Shown: in pieces, positions 1,068 through 15,652 of the stretch | Layout of the letters: the number at the start of each line of letters is the position of its first letter | Numbering within the stretch: position 1 is the first letter of the stretch | Source of the DNA: an uncultured bacterium | GTDB taxonomy: Bacteria; Nitrospirota; Thermodesulfovibrionia; Thermodesulfovibrionales; JdFR-86 | Length of the DNA: 15,652 bases | Reading direction: 5' to 3' | Assembly: GCA_965372535.1 (NCBI GenBank) | Contig: CBDVCR010000071.1 | Coordinates: forward strand, 1-15,652 | Translations under genes and position numbers: made by a program | Notes under the pieces: generated by a model | The model's database searches: none | What the model was told of the DNA's origin: nothing | What the model saw: the letters and a program-made list of their open reading frames with translations, nothing else

Positions 1068-2072
1068 CTATTCTTCCTCTTCGTCTTTCTCAAGTGGCAA
1101 TCCGACGGACTTCATCGTCTTCCTGAAATCGTCCTCATACTCTTCATATGTATGGAACTTGACGTCGGGATTCCACGGGTTAATGTGCCTTTTCTTGCGG
1201 CTGTTGTTTATCATGTTTCTGGTCGGACTCATAAAGACCCCTCCCATGTGCATGAGCTTGCTGAAGGGGAAGTAGATGAGGAGCACGCTGACCAGCAACA
1301 GGTGCATGTAGAATAAGTAGCCTATCCCCTCCGGTGCCGCGGGGGTGAAAGAAAACAGCCCGTTTATCAGCTCCTTGACCTTGGGCACGTCCACCTTGCT
1401 TATGTACCTCATCAGGACCCCGGTGACGGCTATGCCAAGGATGAGGAACAGGGGGAAGTAGTCCGCGGGGAGGGAGATTACCTTCAGCTGCGGGATGACC
1501 ACCCTGCGGAGGAAGAGGTACGTCACGGCTATTACGATAACCGCGTCGGTCATATAGAACGTGGGAAGGGTCAGCTGTAAAAACCCGTCAAGCCCCTCGA
1601 CCCAGTGGACGAAGAACGGCACCGGATCGACGAAAAGCCTGAAGTGCCTGACCACTATGAAAAGAAACGACCAGTGGAAGGCCAACCCCGCCATCCACAG
1701 CCATTTGCTCGAGCCGTAGACGAGCCTCGGCCCTTCCATCGCGTCCGCCTTGGTGTTTTTGAACAGCGAACGGAACAGGAACACCTCCAGGAGCATCCTG
1801 CCGATGACGCCCAGGGCACTTGAAGGGTTGTCGAGCTTGTTCTGCTTTATCCACGGCAGCGACTCCTGCTGGCCGCTGGTCGTGGGGATGCGGAAGGGAA
1901 CGGGCACGCGGGCCCACTGAACAAGGCGATACGCAAAGCCCAGCACAAAGACGGCAACCGCCGCATACGGCACGACGATGCCTAATAAGTATTGCAGGCC
2001 TGCGTTCTCCCCTCCGACGTAAGCGAGCGCAACAAGCACAATCACCATTATAAGGGAAAACATCATACCCAT
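1068..2072 (-). CDS. dsrM: DsrM-like membrane cytochrome b subunit (respiratory nitrate reductase gamma-like)
   Basis: 334-aa ORF with multiple hydrophobic helices, His-containing TM segments, C-terminal HKKRHINPWNPDVKFHTYEEYEDDFRKTMKSVGLP; directly upstream of dsrK. Confidence 0.87.
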   Translation of the reverse strand: MGMMFSLIMVIVLVALAYVGGENAGLQYLLGIVVPYAAVAVFVLGFAYRLVQWARVPVPFRIPTTSGQQESLPWIKQNKLDNPSSALGVIGRMLLEVFLFRSLFKNTKADAMEGPRLVYGSSKWLWMAGLAFHWSFLFIVVRHFRLFVDPVPFFVHWVEGLDGFLQLTLPTFYMTDAVIVIAVTYLFLRRVVIPQLKVISLPADYFPLFLILGIAVTGVLMRYISKVDVPKVKELINGLFSFTPAAPEGIGYLFYMHLLLVSVLLIYFPFSKLMHMGGVFMSPTRNMINNSRKKRHINPWNPDVKFHTYEEYEDDFRKTMKSVGLPLEKDEEEE

Positions 2073-6153: not shown

Positions 6154-7330
6154 GTTTTTCCTTCAGGCTTTCGACGGCCCTCCTTACGGCGGCGTCGAAA
6201 AAGGCCGCACCGACGCGTATCACGTCCTCATCGAAGTTGAAGTTCGAGCTGTGGGCCGTGGCGGACTCCCCGCCCCTGCCCACTGCGCCGAAGCGTACGA
6301 AACAGCCGGGCACTTCCTTAAGATAGTAGGCGAAATCCTCCCCTCCCATGCTGGGCTTTACCAGGTTGATGAACTTCTCCCTGCCGAGCAGTCCCTCCGC
6401 CGCTTCCCGTGCGAGCAGGTAGCATTCGGGATGGTTAACCACCGGAGGGTAACCCTCGAAAATATTCACCTCAATCCTTGCGTCATGGAGCGATGCCATC
6501 CCCTCGGCGGTCTTCTGAATTCTTTTGAGCACGTCTTTTCTGGTCTTTCCATCGGTATTGCGTACTGTGCCCTTGAGGACGGCCTCGTCGGCCACCGCGT
6601 TGTAAACAGTGCCGGCATGGAGGCTCCCGACGGTTATCACCGTGGGGTTCAGGGGGTTGATGCTCCTTGAGATGATGTTCTGAAGGGCCATCACAAAAAG
6701 GCTCGCCACCACGACTGCGTCCACGGTTTCGTGGGGCCGGGCGGCGTGCCCCCCCCGTCCGAGTATCCTTATCTCGATGGCGTCGGTATAGGAGGAGTCC
6801 ACGTCCGTCCGTATGGCGATTTCTCCCAGTTTGAACGCGCCGTCGATATGTCCGCCGAATATCATGTCCACGCCGTCGAGCGCGCCCGCCTCTATCATGG
6901 AGCGTGCGCCTCCGCTTCCCTCCTCGGCGGGCTGAAAGAGCAGTACCACGTTGCCGGGCGGCGGGGATTTCCTGAGAAGCTCCGCGGCGCCGAGCACGAT
7001 GGCCACATGGCCGTCATGCCCGCAGGCGTGCATGTAGCCTTTTACCCTGGAGGCGTAGGGGAGACCTGTCTTCTCCTCGATGGGCAGGGCGTCCATGTCC
7101 GCCCTTAGGGCCACGGTGGGCGCCGGGGGACCGTGGTTGTCGATGCGGGCCACTATGCCGGTCTTTGCGATGCCGCGCCTGTAGGGGATGGAAAGCCTCT
7201 CCAGATACCTGGCGATGGCCTCGCCGGTCTTTTTCTCCTTGAAGGCGGGCTCGGGCCAGCGGTGAATTCTCCTCCTGAGACTCACAAGGCGTTTAAACGT
7301 CCTGTCGTCCATCAAGCGCTTAAAGGGCAT
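6134..7330 (-). CDS. M20-family (M20D-like) amidohydrolase / metallopeptidase
   Basis: LRRRIHRWPEPAFKEKKTGEAIARYL, LRADMDALPIEEKTGLPYAS...GYMHACGHDGHVA, FQPAEEGSGGARSMIEAG, GGHAARPHETVDAV, MGGEDFAYY. Start uncertain: the ORF track extends to a GTG at 7369; ATG at 7330 or 7312 fits the family start better. 3' end overlaps the ybdK start by 20 nt. Confidence 0.87.
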   Translation of the reverse strand: MPFKRLMDDRTFKRLVSLRRRIHRWPEPAFKEKKTGEAIARYLERLSIPYRRGIAKTGIVARIDNHGPPAPTVALRADMDALPIEEKTGLPYASRVKGYMHACGHDGHVAIVLGAAELLRKSPPPGNVVLLFQPAEEGSGGARSMIEAGALDGVDMIFGGHIDGAFKLGEIAIRTDVDSSYTDAIEIRILGRGGHAARPHETVDAVVVASLFVMALQNIISRSINPLNPTVITVGSLHAGTVYNAVADEAVLKGTVRNTDGKTRKDVLKRIQKTAEGMASLHDARIEVNIFEGYPPVVNHPECYLLAREAAEGLLGREKFINLVKPSMGGEDFAYYLKEVPGCFVRFGAVGRGGESATAHSSNFNFDEDVIRVGAAFFDAAVRRAVESLKEKRARVKV

Positions 7331-7442
7331 AATAAATTTTAGCACATGCGGGGGGATTAAAAGAGGCACGCGCAGGTTTACCCGCAGCCGTCAATGCATT
7401 GCAAAAATACAAAATATTTGCCCGTAAACCGGTTGAATCATT

Positions 7443-7448
7443 TATAAT
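7443..7448 (+). promoter_or_regulatory. Possible -10 box (TATAAT) upstream of the rhodanese gene
   Basis: Exact TATAAT 23 nt before the TTG start codon; only a weak -35-like TTGCCC at 7418-7423 with a 19-nt spacer. Confidence 0.35.
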
Positions 7449-7470
7449 ATGATGATGGGGAGGTAGCCGG

Positions 7471-8299
7471 TTGGGCCTTTTCGACATATTCGGAAACATC
7501 AGGACCATCAGCGTTGAGGAGGCGCGCAAGAAGCTCGAAGCCTCGAATAACGGAGAAGTGGCCCTCCTCGACGTCCGGGAGCCCAAGGAATACGCCCAGG
7601 GCCACATCAAGGGCGCGCGGCTCATGCCCCTGAGCCAGCTGGTGCAAAGGACAGAGGAACTCGACCCCTCAAGGCCCGCCATCGTTTACTGCCGCGTGGG
7701 CAGGCGCAGCGGGCCCGCCGCCTCGATACTCGGAAATTCCGGCATGAGCTCCGCGATAAGCCTCGAAGGGGGCATCGAGGCATGGAACGGAAACACTTTC
7801 TCATGCGGCATGGAGCCGGGCGTGTTCCCGCTCGACGGGAAAGACCCCGTGGAGGAGTTGCTCTCCGTCGCCTGGGCGCTTGAGGGCGGCACGTGCGAGT
7901 TTTACGAAAACGTAAGGGAAACCCTCAAGGACAATGAGGCCGGAGTGGTCTTCGGCGCCCTTATAAACAGCGAGCGGAAGCATAAGGACACCCTTAATAG
8001 AGGCATACGGAAAATACTCGACAGACGCCGGCGAGAGCGCAATAAAGGAATCTTCCGGAGCGTTCCTCAAAAGCGGAGCAAACCTTGAGAAAGCCCTCGG
8101 ATGGCTCGGGGCGCCGGAAAGGACAGCCCTGGACATACTGGAACTCTGTCTCCAGCTTGAGGCGAACGCCCTTGACCTTTACATGAAAATCATCCGGCGC
8201 ATCGACGAACCGGCCACAAAAGACGCGCTCAACCAGGTGCTGGAGGAGGAAAAAACACACCTGATGAGCATCGGGAAACTCCTGCAGAGCGTGCTTTAG
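7471..8299 (+). pseudogene. Rhodanese domain fused to rubrerythrin/ferritin-like domain, interrupted by an apparent +1 frameshift near 7996; TTG start
   Basis: Frame 1 (7471..8088): rhodanese VALLDVREPKEYAQGHIKGARLMPL...IVYCRVGRRSG, then ALEGGTCEFYENVRETLKDNEAGVVFGALINSERKHKDTL. The conserved continuation is in another frame from 7997: IEAYGKYSTDAGESAIKESSGAFL...LCLQLEANALDLYMKIIRRIDEPATKDALNQVLEEEKTHLMSIGKLLQSVL, stop at 8297-8299. GGGAGG SD precedes TTG. Confidence 0.8.
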
Positions 8300-8311: not shown

Positions 8312-9481
8312 TTACCCCCCTTTTTCGGGCGCGTACCGAAACACCGCGGCCAGCGGCGCATCCACCGGCATTTTTTCGCGGGCAACAGCGTAAACAGTCC
8401 CGCGGTTTAGAAGCGTTCGGACCGCGGCCAGGTCCAGGAGGTCCTCCTTTTCAGGACCTTCTTCGGGTTCAAGGCTCACCGTGTCTGTTTCGGGGTCGTA
8501 TCTGCCCCACTCTTGCTCGCCAGAAGCGGCAAACAGCACATCTACACTTCCGGCGGAAGCGGCCGGGACAACGACGTTTATGTCCGTAGAAGCATGCCCG
8601 GTGCCCAGAAGCTCCCTGCAGCGCGCCGCAGCCTCCTCGCGGGCCTTGAGAAAAAGGGGCTCCACCACGGCCCATGCCTCCTTGTGCAGACGTTCCGCGC
8701 CCGCCCTTTCCGGGTTGCCCGCCACCCCCCTGTCAACGAGATAGGGGTATGTGTTCGCCTCCCGGTATATCGCGTTGATATACTCGACGCCCGCCAGGAC
8801 CAGGAACGAGTGTTCTTCCTTGAGAAGTTCGTGCAGGCCCCTGTCTACATGGCGGCAGAATCTCAGTACAGCGTCCTTTTCGTCATCCACGCCGACACCG
8901 TGGCCGTGGAACATGGCGGGCCGCTGCCGCATTCCCCCTCCCGTGCCCGTATGAAACTGGAGCTGTTTCTGAGGGTCGTCGTATTTCAGGGCGTCGGCAA
9001 GGCTTTTCGGTACGTCTTTAAGAGACGCCTCGGCCATGCTGTATCGGGAGCCCTGAAACAACCTGACCCCGTTCTGGCTTAGCGCAAGGAGATAGAATCG
9101 CCCGTCCCCGCTGAACAGGGGGAGCAGCGGCTTGAGGTGGAAACGCCGGCCCGGGACAAGCAGTTCTTCAAAGCTCATGGGAAGACGGTAACGGCGGAAT
9201 TCCCCGGCCGAGGCGAACACGGCCAGCCCATCGCTCCTGTGCTCCCAGAAATCCCTGTCGCCCAACAGCATGTGGCCGGGCCTCAGCATCTCTCCGGCCT
9301 CGGCGGAGCGGAGGCCGCCTTCCAGCAGAAGCCCTTCGGCCCGCGAGAGCAGATTTTTGAACCTTACCGGGTCCTGCTCCGCCCCGCCGCCCGTCCTGTG
9401 CGTGGGCATGTAAATCGATATGCATCGGCCGCCGCTTCCTCCCGCAAGCGCCCTCAGGTCATTGATTCCCAGCATATCCAT
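8312..9481 (-). CDS. Probable bacterial archaeo-eukaryotic release factor (baeRF, eRF1-like) family protein
   Basis: 389-aa ORF: CISIYMPTHRTGGGAEQDPVRFKNLLSRAEGLL, RPGHMLLGDRDFWEHRSDGLAVFASAGEFRRYRLP, VPGRRFHLKPLLPLFSGDGRFYLLALSQNGVRLFQGSRYSM, C-terminal LNRGTVYAVAREKMPVDAPLAAVFRY. Confidence 0.75.
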   Translation of the reverse strand: MDMLGINDLRALAGGSGGRCISIYMPTHRTGGGAEQDPVRFKNLLSRAEGLLLEGGLRSAEAGEMLRPGHMLLGDRDFWEHRSDGLAVFASAGEFRRYRLPMSFEELLVPGRRFHLKPLLPLFSGDGRFYLLALSQNGVRLFQGSRYSMAEASLKDVPKSLADALKYDDPQKQLQFHTGTGGGMRQRPAMFHGHGVGVDDEKDAVLRFCRHVDRGLHELLKEEHSFLVLAGVEYINAIYREANTYPYLVDRGVAGNPERAGAERLHKEAWAVVEPLFLKAREEAAARCRELLGTGHASTDINVVVPAASAGSVDVLFAASGEQEWGRYDPETDTVSLEPEEGPEKEDLLDLAAVRTLLNRGTVYAVAREKMPVDAPLAAVFRYAPEKGG

Positions 9482-9757: not shown

Positions 9758-9848
9758 GCTCTGAGGCGACCTCTCACTGACGGAAAACGGCGCCGTCTCG
9801 ATGTTTGCTGCAGGGGGCCGAGGCATATTTTTTTTACCTCGATAGATT

Positions 9849-9857
9849 TGTTATACT
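9849..9857 (+). promoter_or_regulatory. Possible extended -10 promoter element for the motor-like operon
   Basis: TGtTATACT at 9849-9857, 26 nt before the ATG at 9884; no convincing -35, which is common for extended -10 promoters. Confidence 0.4.
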
Positions 9858-9883
9858 TATTCATCTTACTTAAGGAGTTTCGA

Positions 9884-11275
9884 ATGTCCCGGTTAAAACT
9901 CATAGGTTCAGCTCTGACGGTATGCGCTCTGGTGCTGATGCGGCCCGCTCCCGGTGCGGCGATAAGCGAAACGAGCGACGAATATTCCTTCAAAATCACT
10001 GTCGAAACCCACCTCGGGGAGCACCTCAAGTCCGTGCTCACGGACATCGCCGGCTCCGACGACATCATCGTCATAGTCAACGCGGAGGTGGAAACCGACA
10101 AGAAGAGCAAGAAGAAAAAGCGTAAAAAACCCCAGGGCCTCGTGCTTCCCGGCGTCCCGGTTAAGAAGGAAATCGGCAAGAGCGCGGACGAGGCAATGGC
10201 CATTGCAAGCATGGTGCGGAGGCTTGAGGTGGAAATCCTGGTGGACAACGACATTTCCGAGTCCCTCACCCAACTCGCCCACGACATCGCCATCTCCGTC
10301 ATCGGATACGACCCCGACCGGGGCGACAGGCTCACCATCAGGCGAATTGAGTTCGGAAACAAGGGATTTAAGTGGGCCTCGATGTTTTACCCGCCCCACC
10401 TGTACTGGCTTGTTACGCTTATAGCGGGCGGCTTCTTCCTGGTGTCGGCGGCCATGTTCTTCATGGACCCGTTCAAGAAACTGCCGCCCGCCGTGGGAAA
10501 CGTAAACTGGGACGTCATACTCAAGAACCCGGAGAATAAGATGTTCGGCGGAGGCCCGGCAGGCGCGCCGGCAGCGGCCCGGACAGCCAAGGCGGAAACC
10601 ATGGCCGGCAGCGGCGACCCGTTGCCCTTCGGGTTCATAAAAGACGGCCACGTCCCCGACCTGGCCTTCCTGCTTTCGGAAAGCCCTGCCGGGGACATCG
10701 CCATCGTGGCCAACTACCTGGAGCCGGACCTCTCCGCAGGGCTTCTTGAGTCCTTCCCCCCGGAGACCTATGCCGAGGTCGTACTCAAGCTTAAGGACAC
10801 CGCCGAGGCCGGCCCCGAAAGGGTGAAAGCCCTGGAGGAGTCCATCAGGGAGCGCCTGGACTACGTGGTGGGCGGCGACGACAAACTTGCTTCCGTCCTC
10901 AACCTTGCCGAGGGCGAGGTCAGGGACAAGGTGCTCCAAAAGCTCGAAGAGGAGGACCCGGAGGCCGTCGCCCGCCTGAGGCCGAAGATAAAGACCTTCG
11001 AGTCCATGCTGAGGTCCATGAAGCCCAATGTCCTTCAGGCCCTTTTCAGGCAGCTCGACACCACGGTGTTCGCCCGCGTCCTGAAGTCCTCCTCGGCCGA
11101 CATACAGACCAGGGTGCTGGAGTCGCTGAGCGAAGGGGCCGCCGAACTCCTGCGGGAGGAGATGGAACTGAGCCGTCCCCTGAGCGCCGCGCGCCTTAAG
11201 AAGGAAAAGCAGAACATCGCGGCCACCGTCATGCGGATGGCGAGTGTGGGCGTCATAGAGGAGGAAGACATCTGA
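9884..11275 (+). CDS. FliG-like protein with an N-terminal signal/TM and FliF-like periplasmic segment (FliF-FliG-type fusion)
   Basis: AAGGAG SD then ATG at 9884 (ORF track starts at an upstream TTG). Signal-like MSRLKLIGSALTVCALVLMRPAPGAA; FliF-like VRRLEVEILVDNDISESLTQLAHDIAISVIGYDPDRGDRLTIRRIEF; TM HLYWLVTLIAGGFFLVSAAMFF; C-terminal FliG-like LRSMKPNVLQALFRQLDTTVFARVLKSSSADIQTRVLESLSEGAAELLREEMELSRPLSAARLKKEKQNIAATVMRMASVGVI. Confidence 0.8.
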   Translation: MSRLKLIGSALTVCALVLMRPAPGAAISETSDEYSFKITVETHLGEHLKSVLTDIAGSDDIIVIVNAEVETDKKSKKKKRKKPQGLVLPGVPVKKEIGKSADEAMAIASMVRRLEVEILVDNDISESLTQLAHDIAISVIGYDPDRGDRLTIRRIEFGNKGFKWASMFYPPHLYWLVTLIAGGFFLVSAAMFFMDPFKKLPPAVGNVNWDVILKNPENKMFGGGPAGAPAAARTAKAETMAGSGDPLPFGFIKDGHVPDLAFLLSESPAGDIAIVANYLEPDLSAGLLESFPPETYAEVVLKLKDTAEAGPERVKALEESIRERLDYVVGGDDKLASVLNLAEGEVRDKVLQKLEEEDPEAVARLRPKIKTFESMLRSMKPNVLQALFRQLDTTVFARVLKSSSADIQTRVLESLSEGAAELLREEMELSRPLSAARLKKEKQNIAATVMRMASVGVIEEEDI

Positions 11276-11276
11276 G

Positions 11277-12059
11277 ATGGACTTTATGACCGTTTTCGGC
11301 CTTCTGATGGGCGGCGCGACCATGTTCTTCGTCATGGCCGAGGGGAATATCCTGAACATGATAATCAACCCCCTGGCTTTCATCCTGGTGTTCGGAGGCA
11401 CTTTCAGCGCCACGCTCATCTCCTATCCCTGGGACATCGTAAGGCGGATAATCCCTTCCCTGAAAACGATGTTCGTAAAAACCGGAAACGGCAGCGAGCA
11501 CCGGGAGGACCTCATAGAGCAGATTACCAGGCTGGCCGAGAAGGCCCGCCGCCAGAATATCGAGAGCCTTCAGGAGGACGTGGCTTCCATAAACGACGGT
11601 TTTCTGGCCTACGGCATCCAGATGGTGCTGGACGGCCTCGAGCACGAAGTCGTGAAGGACAACCTGGAAAAGGAGATACTTTTCACTCAGCGCTCCCGGC
11701 GCAAGGTCAGCGACGCGTTCCGCACCATGGCCACCTTAGCGCCCATTTTCGGGCTGCTGGGGACCCTCATCGGCGTGGTGCAGGTGCTCAGGAACCTCTC
11801 GGACCCCACCAGCATGGGCGAGGCCATGGCCATCGCCATAACCACCACCTTCTACGGCATTTTCGCGGCCAATTTTCTCTTTCTGCCCGCCGCCATAAAG
11901 CTCAACGAGAACAACGAAGACGAAGTGATGAACTGGCAGATTGCGGCCGAGGGCATATTGTCCATCCAGCAGGGCGACCTCCCGCTGATAGTGAGGAAAA
12001 AACTCAACGCTTTCCTGCTTAAAAGCCTCGGCCGCGAAGGTGGGACCCGAAAAGACTGA
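11277..12059 (+). CDS. motA: MotA-family stator / ion channel protein
   Basis: 260-aa ORF: NPLAFILVFGGTFSATLISYP, FRTMATLAPIFGLLGTLIGVVQVLRNLSDPTSMGEAMAIAITTTFYGIFAANFLFLPAAIKL, typical MotA TM3-TM4 signature with both prolines. Confidence 0.93.
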   Translation: MDFMTVFGLLMGGATMFFVMAEGNILNMIINPLAFILVFGGTFSATLISYPWDIVRRIIPSLKTMFVKTGNGSEHREDLIEQITRLAEKARRQNIESLQEDVASINDGFLAYGIQMVLDGLEHEVVKDNLEKEILFTQRSRRKVSDAFRTMATLAPIFGLLGTLIGVVQVLRNLSDPTSMGEAMAIAITTTFYGIFAANFLFLPAAIKLNENNEDEVMNWQIAAEGILSIQQGDLPLIVRKKLNAFLLKSLGREGGTRKD

Positions 12060-12724
12060 TGAAGCTGTTCATCCCGGAAAACAGGAGGCGTGGGGGCGCG
12101 CTTTGGCTTGTCATATTTTCCGACCTTTCGACGAACCTCATGCTCTTTTTCCTTATTCTCTTCGCCATGACCAGGATGAGTGCCGCCGAGCGCGAGACGG
12201 TGATAGAGGGCATGCAGCGGGCGACCTCCAACCAGGCCGCCCTTGAGGAGCGGGCTTTGAAAAAACAGAAGGAAAAAAACGCCATAAGGACGCTCGAGGA
12301 CACCATTGCCTACGGCAGGCTGAAGAAATACACGAACCTCTCCGTGGGCGACGATAAAATCAAGCTGACCATAGAACTGCCGTTTTTCTTCGCCACCGGG
12401 AGCGCGGAAATCAACGCCGCCGCCCGTCCGGCCCTCAAAAGCCTCGTGATCCCCATTAAAGAGTTCCCCAACGACATAATCATAGAGGGCCATACCGACA
12501 ACGTGCCCATGACTGCGGGCCACAGGTACGGCTCGAACTGGGAGCTCTCGGTGGCCCGCGCCGTCAGCGTTATAAACTTCTTCAAGGAAAAGGGGGTCAA
12601 CCCCGCAAAGCTGGTCTCGGGCGGCTACGGGGAGTACCACCCGGCGTTTCCGAACGACACCCCCCGGAACAGGGCGAAAAACAGGCGCATAGAAATCACC
12701 ATTCTCCGGCAACCTGCGGTGTAG
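12059..12724 (+). CDS. motB: MotB-like / OmpA-domain stator protein with conserved TM aspartate
   Basis: WLVIFSDLSTNLMLFFLILFAM TM with Asp; OmpA-like domain IIIEGHTDNVPMTAGHRYGSNWELSVARAVSVINFFKEKGVNPAKLVSGGYGEYHP...NRAKNRRIEITI. Start ATG overlaps the motA TGA. Confidence 0.9.
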   Translation: MKLFIPENRRRGGALWLVIFSDLSTNLMLFFLILFAMTRMSAAERETVIEGMQRATSNQAALEERALKKQKEKNAIRTLEDTIAYGRLKKYTNLSVGDDKIKLTIELPFFFATGSAEINAAARPALKSLVIPIKEFPNDIIIEGHTDNVPMTAGHRYGSNWELSVARAVSVINFFKEKGVNPAKLVSGGYGEYHPAFPNDTPRNRAKNRRIEITILRQPAV

Positions 12725-12730
12725 GGCAAA

Positions 12731-13381
12731 GTGGCGCTCCACCGAAAAGTACTCAACATCCTCGTAGGGGGAAGGCCGGAGCCCATGAGCTGGCTGCTCC
12801 CCCACAGCACCCTTATGCTCGTCCTGATGATACTGTTCGTGGCCCTGTTCAGTTACTCCTACCTGAACTCGGTCGAGTACGAGTCCGCCCTTGTAGACCT
12901 GGAGACGCCGAAGGCCGAGTTGAGCCCTTCCAAAAGGGAAATCCACCTCGCCAAGAGCATCAGGAAGTTCATCGAAGACATGGGCATGGAGGGCGTCGCC
13001 AGCGTTAACGTGACTCCCCACGCCATAAAGCTCAAGCTTTCAAGCCCCGTGATGTTCGAAAGCGGGAGCGCCGAGCTTACGCCCTTCATCATGCCCATGC
13101 TTGTGGAACTCCTCAGGCACCTGAGGGACATGGAAAACACCATAATCGTGGAGGGACACACCGACAACGTGCCCATACACAGCGCCCTTTACCGCTCCAA
13201 CTGGGAGCTCTCGGCCGCAAGGGCCTTCAGCATAATATATTTTTATATAAAGAGAGACATCGAGCCGGAACGCCTCATCGCCCACGGCTACGGAGAGCAC
13301 AGGCCGTTTTACTCCAACGAGAGCGAGTTCGGGCGCGCCATGAACCGGCGGATAGAGATAACAATCGTAAGGGGAGGATAA
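12731..13381 (+). CDS. Second MotB-like / OmpA-domain protein, apparently lacking the TM aspartate; GTG start
   Basis: WLLPHSTLMLVLMILFVALFSYSYLN TM; OmpA-like domain FESGSAELTPFIMPMLVELLRHLRDMENTIIVEGHTDNVPIHSALYRSNWELSAARAFSIIYFYIKRDIEPERLIAHGYGEHRPF...GRAMNRRIEITIVRGG. Confidence 0.88.
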   Translation: MALHRKVLNILVGGRPEPMSWLLPHSTLMLVLMILFVALFSYSYLNSVEYESALVDLETPKAELSPSKREIHLAKSIRKFIEDMGMEGVASVNVTPHAIKLKLSSPVMFESGSAELTPFIMPMLVELLRHLRDMENTIIVEGHTDNVPIHSALYRSNWELSAARAFSIIYFYIKRDIEPERLIAHGYGEHRPFYSNESEFGRAMNRRIEITIVRGG

Positions 13382-13382
13382 A

Positions 13383-14684
13383 GTGAAGGCAGCACTTGCA
13401 GCCGTATTAACAATGCTCCTGCTTTCCTGGGCGGCGCCGGCCGCCACGGCCCGGGAGACAGGGGGAAAAGCCGGGAAGGCGCGGGACATGGCCGTGAGCC
13501 TCTTCAACCAGGGCAAATACGAGGAGGCCCTTCCACTGTTGAAAGAGATTCTCTCGGAAAACCCCGACGACAAGGTCGCACAGAGGTACCTGCTTATTTA
13601 CAATCAGCAGGTCGTCGAGCCCTACTGCAGGCAGGCGGCCCAGTCCTACTTTGCCGGAGACTACCCTTCCGCGGTCACCCAGTGGGAGAAAATCCTCCGG
13701 ATAAACCCCAACGACATGCGCGTCCGGAAGCTCCTGGACAGGACGATTACCGTCTCCAACCAGGAAGCCCTGGACTCCCTCTACTCCAACGTGACCACGC
13801 TTATGAAGGACAGTAGATACGCCCTGGCAGCGGGCGAACTCGAAAAAATCCTCCAGATAAGGCCCCTTGAGCAGCGGGCGCATGAACTGCTGTCCATAGT
13901 GCGCCGCACCCTTACGGACAGCGCCGTTAAAGAGCTATACGAAAAAGCCAACCAGTATTTCGAGCAGAAGGAATACGACCTCGCCATCGAGCAGTGGCGG
14001 AAGATACTGGAGGTAGACCCGGGCCAGGACCTGGCCTCCCGGCAGATTGCCACCGTGCACCGCCGAAAGCTCGACAAGATGTACACCACAGCCGAACGGC
14101 TCTACCTCGAAGGCGACCTCGCCGCCTCCCGCGACCTCTACAGCAATATTCTTTCCGAAAACCCCACCGACCTTTCCATTAAAAAAACCATAGACCGCCT
14201 CAACGGGACGATAAACATCGTGCCCAGGCTTACTGAGGAGGGGAAGGTCTGGGACGTGCTCAGAAAGGGCGTCGCCCACCACGTCTCGGAGGACGGAAAC
14301 CCCAGGGTGGCCGTTGCCGCCGCCTGGTATGCCGTGCAGCTTGAGCCGGAAAACGCCACGATACTGGCGCTCATGGACCACATGGAGCGGGAAAACTTCG
14401 CCGTCGTCCGCACAATGGCGCCCCCGGTGGACGAGATGAACGTCGTGGACCAGTACCTTTTCACCGCCCTCAACAACATCTACGAGGGCCGCTACGACCT
14501 GGCCGTCCAGGAGTGCGGGATTGTGCTCGAACTCGAGCCGGAAAACATCCTGGCCATGAAGCGCCTGGGCTCGGCCTACTACGCCCTCGGCAGAGCGGGC
14601 AAGGCCAAGAAAGCCTGGCAGAAGGCGCTCAGGCTCTCGCCCAACGACAGCGAACTCAAGGGCTTCATAAAACAGCTCCGGTAA
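13383..14684 (+). CDS. Exported TPR-repeat protein; GTG start
   Basis: Signal-like MKAALAAVLTMLLLSWAAPAATA; repeated TPR units (FNQGKYEEALPLLKEILSENPDD, YFAGDYPSAVTQWEKILRINPND, YFEQKEYDLAIEQWRKILEVDPG, IYEGRYDLAVQECGIVLELEPENILAMKRLGSAYYALGRAGKAKKAWQKALRLSPND). GGAGG SD. Confidence 0.88.
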   Translation: MKAALAAVLTMLLLSWAAPAATARETGGKAGKARDMAVSLFNQGKYEEALPLLKEILSENPDDKVAQRYLLIYNQQVVEPYCRQAAQSYFAGDYPSAVTQWEKILRINPNDMRVRKLLDRTITVSNQEALDSLYSNVTTLMKDSRYALAAGELEKILQIRPLEQRAHELLSIVRRTLTDSAVKELYEKANQYFEQKEYDLAIEQWRKILEVDPGQDLASRQIATVHRRKLDKMYTTAERLYLEGDLAASRDLYSNILSENPTDLSIKKTIDRLNGTINIVPRLTEEGKVWDVLRKGVAHHVSEDGNPRVAVAAAWYAVQLEPENATILALMDHMERENFAVVRTMAPPVDEMNVVDQYLFTALNNIYEGRYDLAVQECGIVLELEPENILAMKRLGSAYYALGRAGKAKKAWQKALRLSPNDSELKGFIKQLR

Positions 14685-14874
14685 GGGGCTCGCCGCCCAG
14701 GAGGTCGATTTCCGCGACGCCGATTTCAAGGAGGGTTTCAGCGAGCTTTTCAAAATCCCCGATTTCGATATCCGCATGTGCCTCTACTCCCCGGGTAAAG
14801 CAGAAACCGCACGCCCGGTCGCAGCGCAGGGTGGGGTAGAGCTGGACGAAACGGGGCCTGCCGGGCGTTGTCAT
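14685..14874 (-). pseudogene. Truncated N-terminal fragment of a radical SAM protein
   Basis: Minus-strand MTTPGRPRFVQLYPTLRCDRACGFCFTRGVEAHADIEIGDFEKLAETLLEIGVAEIDLLGGEP: CxxxCxxC cluster motif and GGEP motif, then reading frame runs into the end of the TPR gene and stops at 14665; rest of the protein is absent. Confidence 0.72.
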
Positions 14875-14899
14875 GTGTTATTATCGTGAAAGGCATCGC

Positions 14900-14935
14900 A
14901 AAAAGTAAAAGGGTTGCGGGAGCAACCCGCAACCC
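14900..14935 (-). terminator. Strong stem-loop with T-rich tail (Rho-independent terminator, minus direction)
   Basis: GGGTTGCGGG (14911-14920) agcaa CCCGCAACCC (14926-14935), perfect 10-bp stem; on the minus strand followed by TTTTACTTTTT. Confidence 0.7.
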
Positions 14936-14946
14936 CTTGATATCTT

Positions 14947-15060
14947 ATGGTGGCGCTGAGCGGGCTCAAGGAACTCTTGAACCACAAGACGCTGAATATG
15001 ACTCTCTGATATGCTTATCCGGCTCCGAGCCACAAGGTCAAGTGTGGGGGTGCTGAATTA
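14947..15060 (+). pseudogene. Remnant of a tyrosine recombinase / phage integrase C-terminus
   Basis: Plus-frame reading: MVALSGLKELLNHKTLNMTL*YAYPAPSHKVKCGGAEL, resembling the family box xLLGHKTLxMTLRYAHLxPxHK with the Arg codon as TGA; upstream frame is closed. Confidence 0.72.
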
Positions 15061-15073
15061 TGTATAATTTTAC

Positions 15074-15652
15074 ATGAAGGAAATTACTCTATATGGTCCA
15101 TATTCAATTGTAAGTTCTGATCATGACATACTTTCTGATTGCCCATACTCTCAAAAGGCGGGGATATATTTGTGGGCTGTGAAAATGTTTTCAAATTATT
15201 TCAGAGTAACATACATCGGAGAGACCGGTACTTCATTTTATAAAAGAACCAAAGAGCATGTAATTCAAACGTTGGGGGGTAATTATCAAATATGTGATCC
15301 CGATGCAATGCAAAGAGGTGAATCTATAGTTGTATGGAATGGTTTATGGAGAAAAGGTTATAGGGACAAGTTTCCTGAGTTTTTGAGAAGATATGAGGGT
15401 ATTGCTACAGTGATAAAAGGTGCTCTCAGTGTCCAAAATATCTTTGTAGCTCCTATGGATGTGGATTCAAGGACACGTAAGCGTATCGAAGGTGCTTTAG
15501 CCTTTGCTGTAAGAAATAATAAAGATGCATCGTCTTTGCTTCCCAAAGACATTCGATACTTCAAGAATAAAGAAGATGAGAGTCCAATCGCTATAAGCAT
15601 CGAAGCACAATCGAAAATTGAAGGGCTGCCAAGGCAAATAATATGTGTGTAA
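15074..15652 (+). CDS. GIY-YIG domain protein
   Basis: 192-aa complete ORF: QKAGIYLWAVKMFSNYFRVTYIGETGTSFYKRTKEHVIQTLGGNY; GIY ... YIG spacing and downstream SFYKRxKEH typical of the GIY-YIG fold. Markedly lower GC than the rest of the window. TATAAT at 15063-15068 lies only 5 nt before the ATG. Confidence 0.75.
   Translation: MKEITLYGPYSIVSSDHDILSDCPYSQKAGIYLWAVKMFSNYFRVTYIGETGTSFYKRTKEHVIQTLGGNYQICDPDAMQRGESIVVWNGLWRKGYRDKFPEFLRRYEGIATVIKGALSVQNIFVAPMDVDSRTRKRIEGALAFAVRNNKDASSLLPKDIRYFKNKEDESPIAISIEAQSKIEGLPRQIICV

Follow-up and report, generated by a model that had tools for sequence, protein, structure and literature searches.

Can a flagellar-type stator be paired with a rotor that is reduced to a single protein, and what would such a pair do? 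The question is raised by a 15,652-nucleotide stretch of DNA from an uncultured bacterium of the Nitrospirota (contig CBDVCR010000071.1, the whole of which is called the window here), in which the gene at 9884-11275 encodes a protein that a preliminary description, made from the sequence alone, had taken for a FliG domain tethered covalently to a FliF-like membrane segment. Profile searches, structure prediction and comparison with related loci show this fusion protein to be a natural single-chain rotor subunit, in which a periplasmic domain of the ring-building motif 3 (RBM3) type, a transmembrane (TM) helix and cytoplasmic FliG middle and C-terminal domains follow one another, encoded in an operon with stator genes. 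The reading that we favour, with some reserve, is an axle-less and unswitched rotor-stator motor turned by its own stators.

The fusion gene is the first of five genes, followed by those of MotA, two MotB paralogs and a TPR protein, which lie on one strand with gaps or overlaps of 1-7 nucleotides (nt). The identity of these four neighbours, on which the preliminary description did not draw, is the best evidence for its interpretation. The features of this cassette are as follows (aa, amino acids).

9872..9877, +, ribosome-binding site AAGGAG, 6 nt 5' of the ATG at 9884; read from the sequence
9884..11275, +, fusion gene FliF(RBM3)-TM-FliG(M+C), 463 aa; open reading frame (ORF), Pfam, AlphaFold and Foldseek
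11277..12059, +, MotA/PomA-type stator A subunit, 260 aa, beginning 1 nt past the fusion stop; Pfam MotA_ExbB and MotA_N
12059..12724, +, MotB1, 221 aa; Pfam MotB_plug and OmpA; plug, channel Asp in the TM helix (FSDLSTNLMLFF), peptidoglycan-binding domain of OmpA-like type
12731..13381, +, MotB2, 216 aa; Pfam MotB_plug (25.9 bits, cut-off 24) and OmpA
13383..14684, +, periplasmic TPR protein, 433 aa; signal peptide present, lipobox absent; Pfam TPR families
14908..14938, no strand assigned, hairpin with a perfect 13-bp stem; terminator scan, scored on the minus strand

The fusion protein

The ORF that encloses the fusion gene runs over 9848..11275 (+), and the ATG at 9884 is most likely the true start, as judged from the AAGGAG at 9872-9877. 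All three Pfam families expected of a FliF-FliG hybrid are found in the protein above their curated cut-offs: YscJ_FliF_C at aa 97-157 (32.2 bits, cut-off 23.8, E-value (E) 1.7e-7, model positions 83-147), FliG_M at aa 262-328 (39 bits, cut-off 25) and FliG_C at aa 353-459 (65.5 bits, cut-off 23.3, E 6e-18). The NCBIfam models of the entire proteins do not reach their cut-offs and are covered in part only, fliG (TIGR00207) with 74.2 bits (cut-off 226.7) over model positions 126-329 and fliF (TIGR00206) with 28 bits (cut-off 129.75) over model positions 235-290. The protein holds parts of FliF and of FliG, yet is neither, and no curated Pfam or NCBIfam model is specific to its family. A C-terminus of MgtE_N-like or generic helical repeats beside an N-terminus free of FliF similarity, the outcome which the preliminary description had set against its own proposal, is ruled out, since MgtE_N is found only with a lower score and overlapping FliG_C, the matches to FliG_C and FliG_M being the stronger ones.

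AlphaFold monomer models were built from 38 sequences (mean predicted local distance difference test, pLDDT, 75.6) and then from 145 sequences (pLDDT 85.2), and both agree on the layout given below. In the Foldseek comparison of the model with the PDB, FliG middle and C-terminal domain structures come first (2.5e-10), followed by FliF RBM3/S-ring structures (7e-5 to 1e-3, TM-score to the target of about 0.55).

9884..9964, +, N-terminal hydrophobic segment, aa 1-27; hydropathy, predicted helix aa 2-18
9974..10096, +, first half of RBM3, helix aa 31-56 and strand aa 61-71; fliF model 235-290, pLDDT 95-97
10097..10207, +, loop aa 72-108 in place of the FliF beta-collar; pLDDT 55-63
10139..10159, +, LVLPGVP motif, aa 86-92, within the collar-position loop
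10208..10348, +, second half of RBM3, strand aa 109-121, helix aa 126-140 and strand aa 149-155; YscJ_FliF_C, RGD motif aa 146-148
10397..10465, +, TM helix aa 172-194, equivalent of the second TM helix (TM2) of FliF; hydropathy, AlphaFold helix and profile alignment
10466..10621, +, cytoplasmic linker aa 195-246, partly disordered; pLDDT below 50 at aa 214-241
10622..10873, +, FliG middle domain; Pfam FliG_M, starting at PFGF (PFSF in most homologs)
10940..11260, +, FliG C-terminal domain; Pfam FliG_C
11129..11170, +, FliG torque helix, about aa 416-429

The signal-like character earlier ascribed to the N-terminus is borne out by hydropathy and by the predicted helix. The segment would be either a Sec signal peptide or a FliF-like first TM helix; it is found in all homologs and usually ends in Ala-x-Ala/Glu. 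The likeness to FliF that follows is divided. When the N-terminal hidden Markov model of the family was compared with E. coli FliF, two blocks were aligned, 235-279 (fusion aa ~31-75) and 373-433, the latter including KRGD. The segment VRRLEVEILVDN...DRGDRLTIRRIEF (nt 10214-10354), which had been singled out as resembling FliF just ahead of TM2, aligns with E. coli FliF 373-433 (VQRLSVAVVV...KRGDSLNVVNSPF), and that resemblance, like the TM helix predicted after it, has been upheld. Between the two blocks, E. coli FliF has 93 residues (280-372, the beta-collar) against about 36-37 in the fusion family. The family profile also matches Salmonella FliF over 406-521, TM2 included (E 3e-5), and a second FliF chain (6e-5). 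The alpha-beta / beta-alpha-beta unit of the model is a ring-building motif. From the split alignment, the periplasmic part is read as an RBM3 in which a short loop has been exchanged for the collar, RBM1 and RBM2 being absent. SpoIIIAG of the sporulation ring (PDB 5wc3), a weak match both to the family profile (E 0.02) and in Foldseek, likewise consists of one RBM, its first two strands separated by an insertion, and forms a large homo-oligomeric ring; however, its insertion is a large beta-triangle rather than a short LPGVP loop, and it has neither a FliG domain nor a stator.

A Lys/Arg-rich insert, remarked upon earlier as unusual for a periplasmic segment and put at about 10105-10140, is indeed present (TDKKSKKKKRKKPQG, aa 71-85, nt 10094-10138), but it belongs to the collar-position loop and differs from homolog to homolog. 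What is conserved there is the LPG(V/I)P motif directly after it, with P89 in 166, G90 in 162 and P92 in 153 of 167 family members. No other parts of the fusion protein are as well conserved as the ring-building motif and the LPGVP loop. The linker on the cytoplasmic side, which varies in length and sequence among homologs, occupies the place of the FliF C-terminal peptide and of FliG_N.

The FliG-type armadillo repeats of the preliminary description are confirmed by FliG_M and FliG_C, with which the AlphaFold and Foldseek results agree. The helical middle and C-terminal domains (aa 254-455) are modelled with pLDDT 93-98, and this part aligns from PF(G/S)F to the C-terminus with the middle and C-terminal domains of T. 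maritima FliG (E 5e-23 for the single sequence, 1.5e-35 for the profile). The FliG_C of the fusion superposes at 1.6 Å on the MotAB-bound FliG_C chain 8ucs_H. There is no Pfam match to FliG_N in the fusion protein, its place being taken by the TM helix and the disordered linker. Residues of the FliG part were counted in the 167 family members and are numbered here as in E. coli FliG. The FliM-binding residues EHPQ 125-128 and R160 are ESPA and Lys in the window protein and are not conserved in the family, His126 being outside the six commonest residues at its column and position 160 variable. Together with the lack of FliG_N, and of fliM or fliN near 27 loci, this supports the earlier suggestion that no FliM/FliN-dependent switching takes place. 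In the monomer model, the arrangement of the FliG middle and C-terminal domains is closer to clockwise Salmonella FliG (8wiw, 8umx and 8vib; root-mean-square deviation of about 6 Å) than to counter-clockwise structures (8umd, 9n49 and 8wo5; about 14 Å); this closer fit may be a bias of the prediction and no indicator of the sense of rotation.

The nearest precedent is the fusion of the Chlamydiaceae, so that natural FliF-FliG fusions are not unprecedented. That protein has been described as about 330 aa long, with a signal sequence, two TM segments, a reduced periplasmic region made of an RBM2-like domain and one further RBM-like region, and FliG_M only; Chlamydia is described there as non-flagellated, with fliF, fliL and flhA the only flagellar genes listed, and a link of the fusion to the injectisome component SctQ has been proposed (Bergeron 2016, PMC4768692). 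The window protein is similar in being a natural shortened FliF joined to a FliG-like cytoplasmic domain, but going by that published description it is set apart by having RBM3 only, both FliG_M and FliG_C, and stator genes in its operon. Engineered FliF-FliG fusions of Salmonella and Vibrio (PDB 8z4d/8z4g) assemble rings and motors. They share with the cassette fusion the covalent 1:1 relation of ring protein and FliG; unlike it, they are laboratory joinings of full-length FliF and full-length FliG in complete flagella. In the full-text literature, the coverage of which leaves out most subscription journals, only the Chlamydia and engineered fusions were met, and no description of the present family was found.

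Stator genes, contact residues and the TPR partner

The cassette MotA has four hydrophobic segments and matches the NCBIfam MotA/PomA/MotP family at E ~1e-50 and a solved MotA in the PDB at 7e-46, remaining under the equivalog cut-offs of both MotA (173.5, cut-off 340) and PomA (171, cut-off 341). Its matches to TolQ (E 0.009) and ZorA (E 0.005) are far weaker. The documented rotor-stator charge contacts are those of MotA E98 with FliG R281 and of MotA R90 with FliG D288/D289 (2025 MotAB evolution survey). The window MotA keeps R90, E150, P173 and P222 and has Gln in place of E98. Among the 120 cassette-type MotA matches listed, to which all MotA counts refer, P173 and P222 are Pro in every one (120/120), R90 is Arg in 109 and Lys in 9, and position 98 is Gln in 80, Ala in 23 and Glu in only 5.

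On the rotor side, the MotA-facing charges of FliG_C, the mapping of which in homologs had been proposed as a check, are kept in part. K264 is Lys in the window protein and mostly Lys (106) or Arg (30) in the 167 members, D289 is Glu426 in the window and Glu in 148/167, and D288 is Glu in the window and Gln (85) or Glu (81) in the family. R281, by contrast, is Gly418 in the window, Gly in 151/167 and never Arg, and R297 is Ser in the window and Ser, Pro or Thr in the family. The combined counts suggest that the R90/D289 contact pair has been retained and that the E98/R281 pair has been lost on both partners, a reciprocal loss that is expected if the fusion and the cassette MotA really touch.

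The two MotB paralogs differ at the channel residue. The equivalent of Asp32 is Asp in all aligned homologs of MotB1. In MotB2 this position is Thr in the window and in the aligned Nitrospirota homologs, and Asp in two loci outside that clade (L019 and L023); within the Nitrospirota clade, the Asp-less MotB2 is kept at ~50% identity. This suggests either a stator with a MotB1/MotB2 heterodimer and a single Asp, or a purely structural, non-conducting MotB2.

The conservation of MotA P173/P222, of the MotB1 Asp and of the plug is what would be expected of a working motor. Together with the highly conserved ring-building motif and LPGVP loop, for which a simple cytoplasmic dock has no need, it speaks against another use of the same contact, in which a membrane-anchored FliG would capture MotAB so as to open or regulate its ion channels (in ion-motive-force sensing, leak or signalling) or to sequester stators. 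Such a static dock would draw on the fact that stator units open their plug and bind peptidoglycan only once engaged with FliG, it would fit the CheY-like REC genes lying near the cassette in relatives, and the lost charge pair and Asp-less MotB2 could mean a weakened torque; we nevertheless consider it unlikely.

The fifth gene product is found with the fusion in the Nitrospirota loci, L019 and L023, and signal peptides were present in all of its homologs inspected. Over its last ~200 aa it is homologous (35% identity, E 2e-30) to the TPR tail which a PorV-family outer-membrane protein, encoded beside distant fusions, possesses. A periplasmic TPR-domain protein, PflA, is also known from Helicobacter and Campylobacter; in Helicobacter PflA's TPR domain and PflB bind periplasmic MotB, and stators are missing from a motor without either (PMC12054838). 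PflA and PflB are, however, parts of complete flagella, and the cassette protein matches generic TPR families, the likeness being one of domain type alone.

The same partner brings into consideration a trans-envelope force transducer like Tol-Pal or TonB, in which the stator would do intermittent work on an assembly of ring and TPR protein linked to the outer membrane. The periplasmic location of the TPR partner in all homologs inspected, the fusion of its homolog to a PorV/PorQ-family barrel in distant relatives and the presence of two peptidoglycan-binding MotB paralogs would all suit it. The cassette also has in common with TolQR, ExbBD, AglRQS, GldLM and ZorAB an ion-driven MotAB-like unit, which in those systems serves non-filament work, and AglRQS has two B-type subunits. 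The A subunits of these systems, though, are without the flagellar torque interface and do not act on FliG, whereas the cassette MotA is of the flagellar type and not of the TolQ/ExbB type; the receiver of energy would here be a cytoplasmic FliG torque helix, with no periplasmic TolA- or TonB-like partner. A transducer of this sort, to which we give a low probability, overlaps the motor reading and differs from it mainly in the continuity of rotation.

Relatives of the cassette and the search for other flagellar genes

About 40 full-length relatives of the fusion with 35-85% identity were found in a word-based search, the named ones being Nitrospirae/Nitrospirota metagenome-assembled genomes (MAGs). 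A scan of one genome per species gave 15 loci, 14 of them from Nitrospirota/Nitrospirae/Nitrospiria and one from an uncultured bacterium. The five-gene order is kept in every Nitrospirota locus with enough sequence, with flanking genes that differ from those of the window. A profile search of 1.84 billion cluster representatives returned 285 clusters (50% identity) at E<=1e-30 and 2,977 at E<=1e-10. Nearly all of the best 150 of the 285 clusters span the profile from ~10 to 470 and are the same fusion with 430-735 aa; among the named family members are one MAG of the Elusimicrobiota and one of Ca. Firestonebacteria. Outside the Nitrospirota clade, L019 (Elusimicrobiota-type) and L023 have an identical five-gene cassette.

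Such breadth bears on the simplest explanation of the protein, namely a frameshifted or mis-assembled fliF-fliG junction or a decaying pseudogene. The genes fliF and fliG are neighbours in E. coli and adjacent in many other flagellar operons, so that a trivial read-through fusion is conceivable; yet ~400 residues that a read-through fusion would have are absent, the ribosome-binding site is intact, and operon structure and a uniform guanine-cytosine (GC) content are observed. The conservation data, that is ~285 clusters at E<=1e-30, the best 150 nearly all covering the full profile and the motifs common to them, exclude an artefact for practical purposes.

The wider family contains two arrangements. 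Divergent upstream of the cassette, L019 (7502-7894, -) and L023 (7536-7910, -) have a CheY-like gene with a single REC domain, E. coli CheY matching that of L023 at 2e-17 in tblastn; no such gene adjoins the window cassette. Type B fusions (L020, L021, L022, L027, L028 and L029) have a cytoplasmic TPR extension past FliG_C, and after them there is always a gene for a coiled-coil protein rich in Glu and Lys (830-1,600 aa). On their upstream side lies either a PorV/PorQ-family outer-membrane barrel fused to TPR (132 bits in NCBIfam, cut-off 90) or an AAA_22 ATPase together with a divergent che operon; the latter reads cheW-cheY-cheA-mcp-cheC and stands beside distant fusions in L020 and L028. 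In L027, FlbD-MotA follows the coiled-coil gene, and in L022 the fusion adjoins a gene for a 17,141-aa protein. The Gly281/Glu289 signature holds across the Nitrospirota, L019/L023 and type B members. The CheY-like REC gene, the che operon and FlbD-MotA beside relatives are counted in favour of the motor reading, as motor-like regulation.

Further flagellar genes were looked for by tblastn, the queries being 34 E. coli proteins of flagellar export, rod, hook, ring and switch, against the window and 26 related loci (441 kb). In these 27 loci, with ~10 kb around the fusion, only MotA, MotB, the FliG domain and REC/che genes were matched, and no export, rod, hook or switch gene, fliM and fliN included. 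The E. coli queries are distant from the hosts of the cassette; FlhA, FliI and FliP are well conserved and expected to be detectable if present.

Compared with the flagellar FliF/FliG/MotA5B2 core, the cassette has the RBM3 fold with its RGD motif, the TM2-equivalent helix, the FliG middle and C-terminal domains with the torque helix, a MotA with R90, E150, P173 and P222, and a MotB with plug, channel Asp and OmpA-like domain. It differs in placing rotor and torque ring in one polypeptide, in being without RBM1, RBM2, beta-collar, FliF C-terminal peptide, FliG_N, FliM-binding motif and the R281/E98 pair, in having no FliM/FliN, export, rod, hook or filament genes nearby, and in possessing two MotB paralogs (one Asp-less) and a dedicated periplasmic TPR gene. 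In the 2025 MotAB evolution survey, features of the flagellar-type stator are regarded as flagellum-specific and such a cassette is unmentioned.

These differences also bear on the proposal that the cassette serves a true flagellum of flagellated Nitrospirota as an accessory or alternative part, either as a second rotor ring or as a membrane-anchored FliG paralog recruiting second stators. In the MS ring, it is RBM1, RBM2 and the collar that enclose the export gate and keep the rod in place, and the fusion is without all three as well as without FliG_N and the FliM-binding motif; moreover, type-A cassettes always have stator genes and a TPR partner of their own, the same cassette is present in an Elusimicrobiota-type MAG, and no other flagellar gene lies within ~10 kb in the 27 loci. 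What recommends the proposal is the flagellar type of the cassette MotA, the nearest solved relatives of which are flagellar stators, the origin of some named cassette-MotA relatives (among the matches listed) from the Thermodesulfovibrionales, an order which includes flagellated species, and the FlbD-MotA beside one distant fusion. On balance a flagellar accessory is judged quite improbable.

Other origins of the locus were considered as well. Zorya or another defence system was rejected, since PADLOC gave only generic MotB (ZorB) matches, with ZorA at E 0.005 and no other Zorya proteins. A phage origin was rejected, there being no PHROG match for the fusion protein or two flanking ORFs, as was a horizontal-transfer island, the GC content being uniform at 54-62% and tRNA genes absent. 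An antisense ORF (9908-11419, -, 503 aa), which spans the whole fusion gene, has no independent support, its conservation mirroring that of the coding strand, and is probably a spurious by-product of the coding strand in GC-rich DNA.

The surroundings of the cassette vary. In the main Nitrospirota clade it is flanked by multihaem cytochrome c genes (Paired_CXXCH, cytochrome c7 and MtrC/MtrF-like; for example L007 14859-18041 and 4839-7501), one of which immediately follows the TPR gene in the same orientation; the TPR stop codon of L001 is overlapped by a short Paired_CXXCH ORF (14833-15129). The window cassette has no such flanking genes. These flanks could be due to shared ancestry of related genomes or to a functional link to extracellular electron transfer. 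A protein of ~550 aa with RCC1 repeats and Lcl_C is encoded divergently upstream of the fusion in 13/17 loci (L007 7951-9618, -). Where most Nitrospirota loci have this gene, the window has one for a baeRF family 7 release-factor-like protein (8312-9481, -, E 1e-48); in NCBIfam this protein also scores 130 bits, below the cut-off of 330, with 'AOC03_06830 family ribosome hibernation factor'.

Upstream of the cassette, no sigma-70 consensus promoter was found, nor any convincing sigma-54 or sigma-28 motif by eye. The hairpin at 14908-14938 likely ends the operon, its role as a terminator for the plus strand being deduced. The ORF at 15074-15652 (+), which runs off the window end, has no match in Pfam, NCBIfam, PHROGs or PADLOC; a relation to the cassette is improbable, as ~390 nt and the strong hairpin lie between it and the operon. 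In the region 7320-8136, ORFs compete on both strands. Of these, the plus-strand ORF 7471-8088, with a rhodanese domain and a weak rubrerythrin-like match, is probably the true gene; neither of the minus-strand ORFs (7320-7682 and 7801-8136) matches a family. Near the beginning of the window, the ORF 39-1316 (+, 425 aa, no Pfam match) overlaps by ~250 nt with the ORF 1068-2072 (-), which has a nitrate-reductase-gamma-like membrane cytochrome b domain; the start or end of one of the two must be wrongly assigned.

A possible axle-less motor

On the motor reading, the RBM3 domains would oligomerise into an inner-membrane ring, as those of FliF and SpoIIIAG do, and each ring subunit would carry one FliG middle and C-terminal module under the membrane, a covalent link replacing the joint between the FliF C-terminus and FliG_N. 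Stators of the MotA5B2 type would be held to peptidoglycan by the OmpA-like domains of MotB1 and MotB2, with ions passing the MotB1 Asp, and the cytoplasmic domain of MotA would push the FliG torque helix through the Arg90/Glu(289) contact, so that the ring turns. Such a motor would be axle-less and unswitched, since there is no FliM/FliN switch, export gate, rod or filament. Its output would be periplasmic, most plausibly by way of the near-invariant LPG(V/I)P loop and the co-conserved TPR protein. Alternatively, or in addition, the TPR protein may hold the stators, like the PflA TPR domain and PflB in Helicobacter.

Several points weigh against this reading. Ring formation, the MotA-FliG contact and rotation are all deduced from homology, one of the two canonical charge pairs is missing, and the stator may be unconventional in view of a MotB2 without the channel Asp in the Nitrospirota clade. 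The LPGVP loop, from which the output would most plausibly start, is of low confidence in the monomer model (pLDDT 55-63), and no output structure has been identified for the motor. No MotAB was found within 8-10 kb of the fusion in L020, L021, L022, L028 and L029. The cassette could also belong to flagella if its hosts are flagellated.

Taken more widely, the family may represent a free-standing, axle-less, ion-driven rotary motor spread over several mostly uncultured phyla (Nitrospirota, Elusimicrobiota, Ca. Firestonebacteria and others), and would then be either a pre-flagellar sister or relic, or a reduced flagellar motor that delivers torque to the envelope through a TPR or outer-membrane partner; we put this forward tentatively, at somewhat less than an even chance.

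The cassette pairs a flagellar-type stator with what appears to be a minimal FliF/FliG ring and nothing else flagellar, and its conservation extends beyond a single phylum. Should it rotate, it would, with five genes and a 1:1 ring, be the smallest natural rotor-stator pair known, and would suit structural and single-molecule work on torque without a switch. It would also let nature itself answer whether torque needs both canonical charge pairs or can do with one, and give a function to a large family now annotated as 'FliG' or 'hypothetical'. How rotor, stator and type III export apparatus came together in the flagellar motor, the textbook example of a rotary machine, is a standing question, for which a rotating cassette would be a data point on rotor and stator existing independently of the export apparatus.

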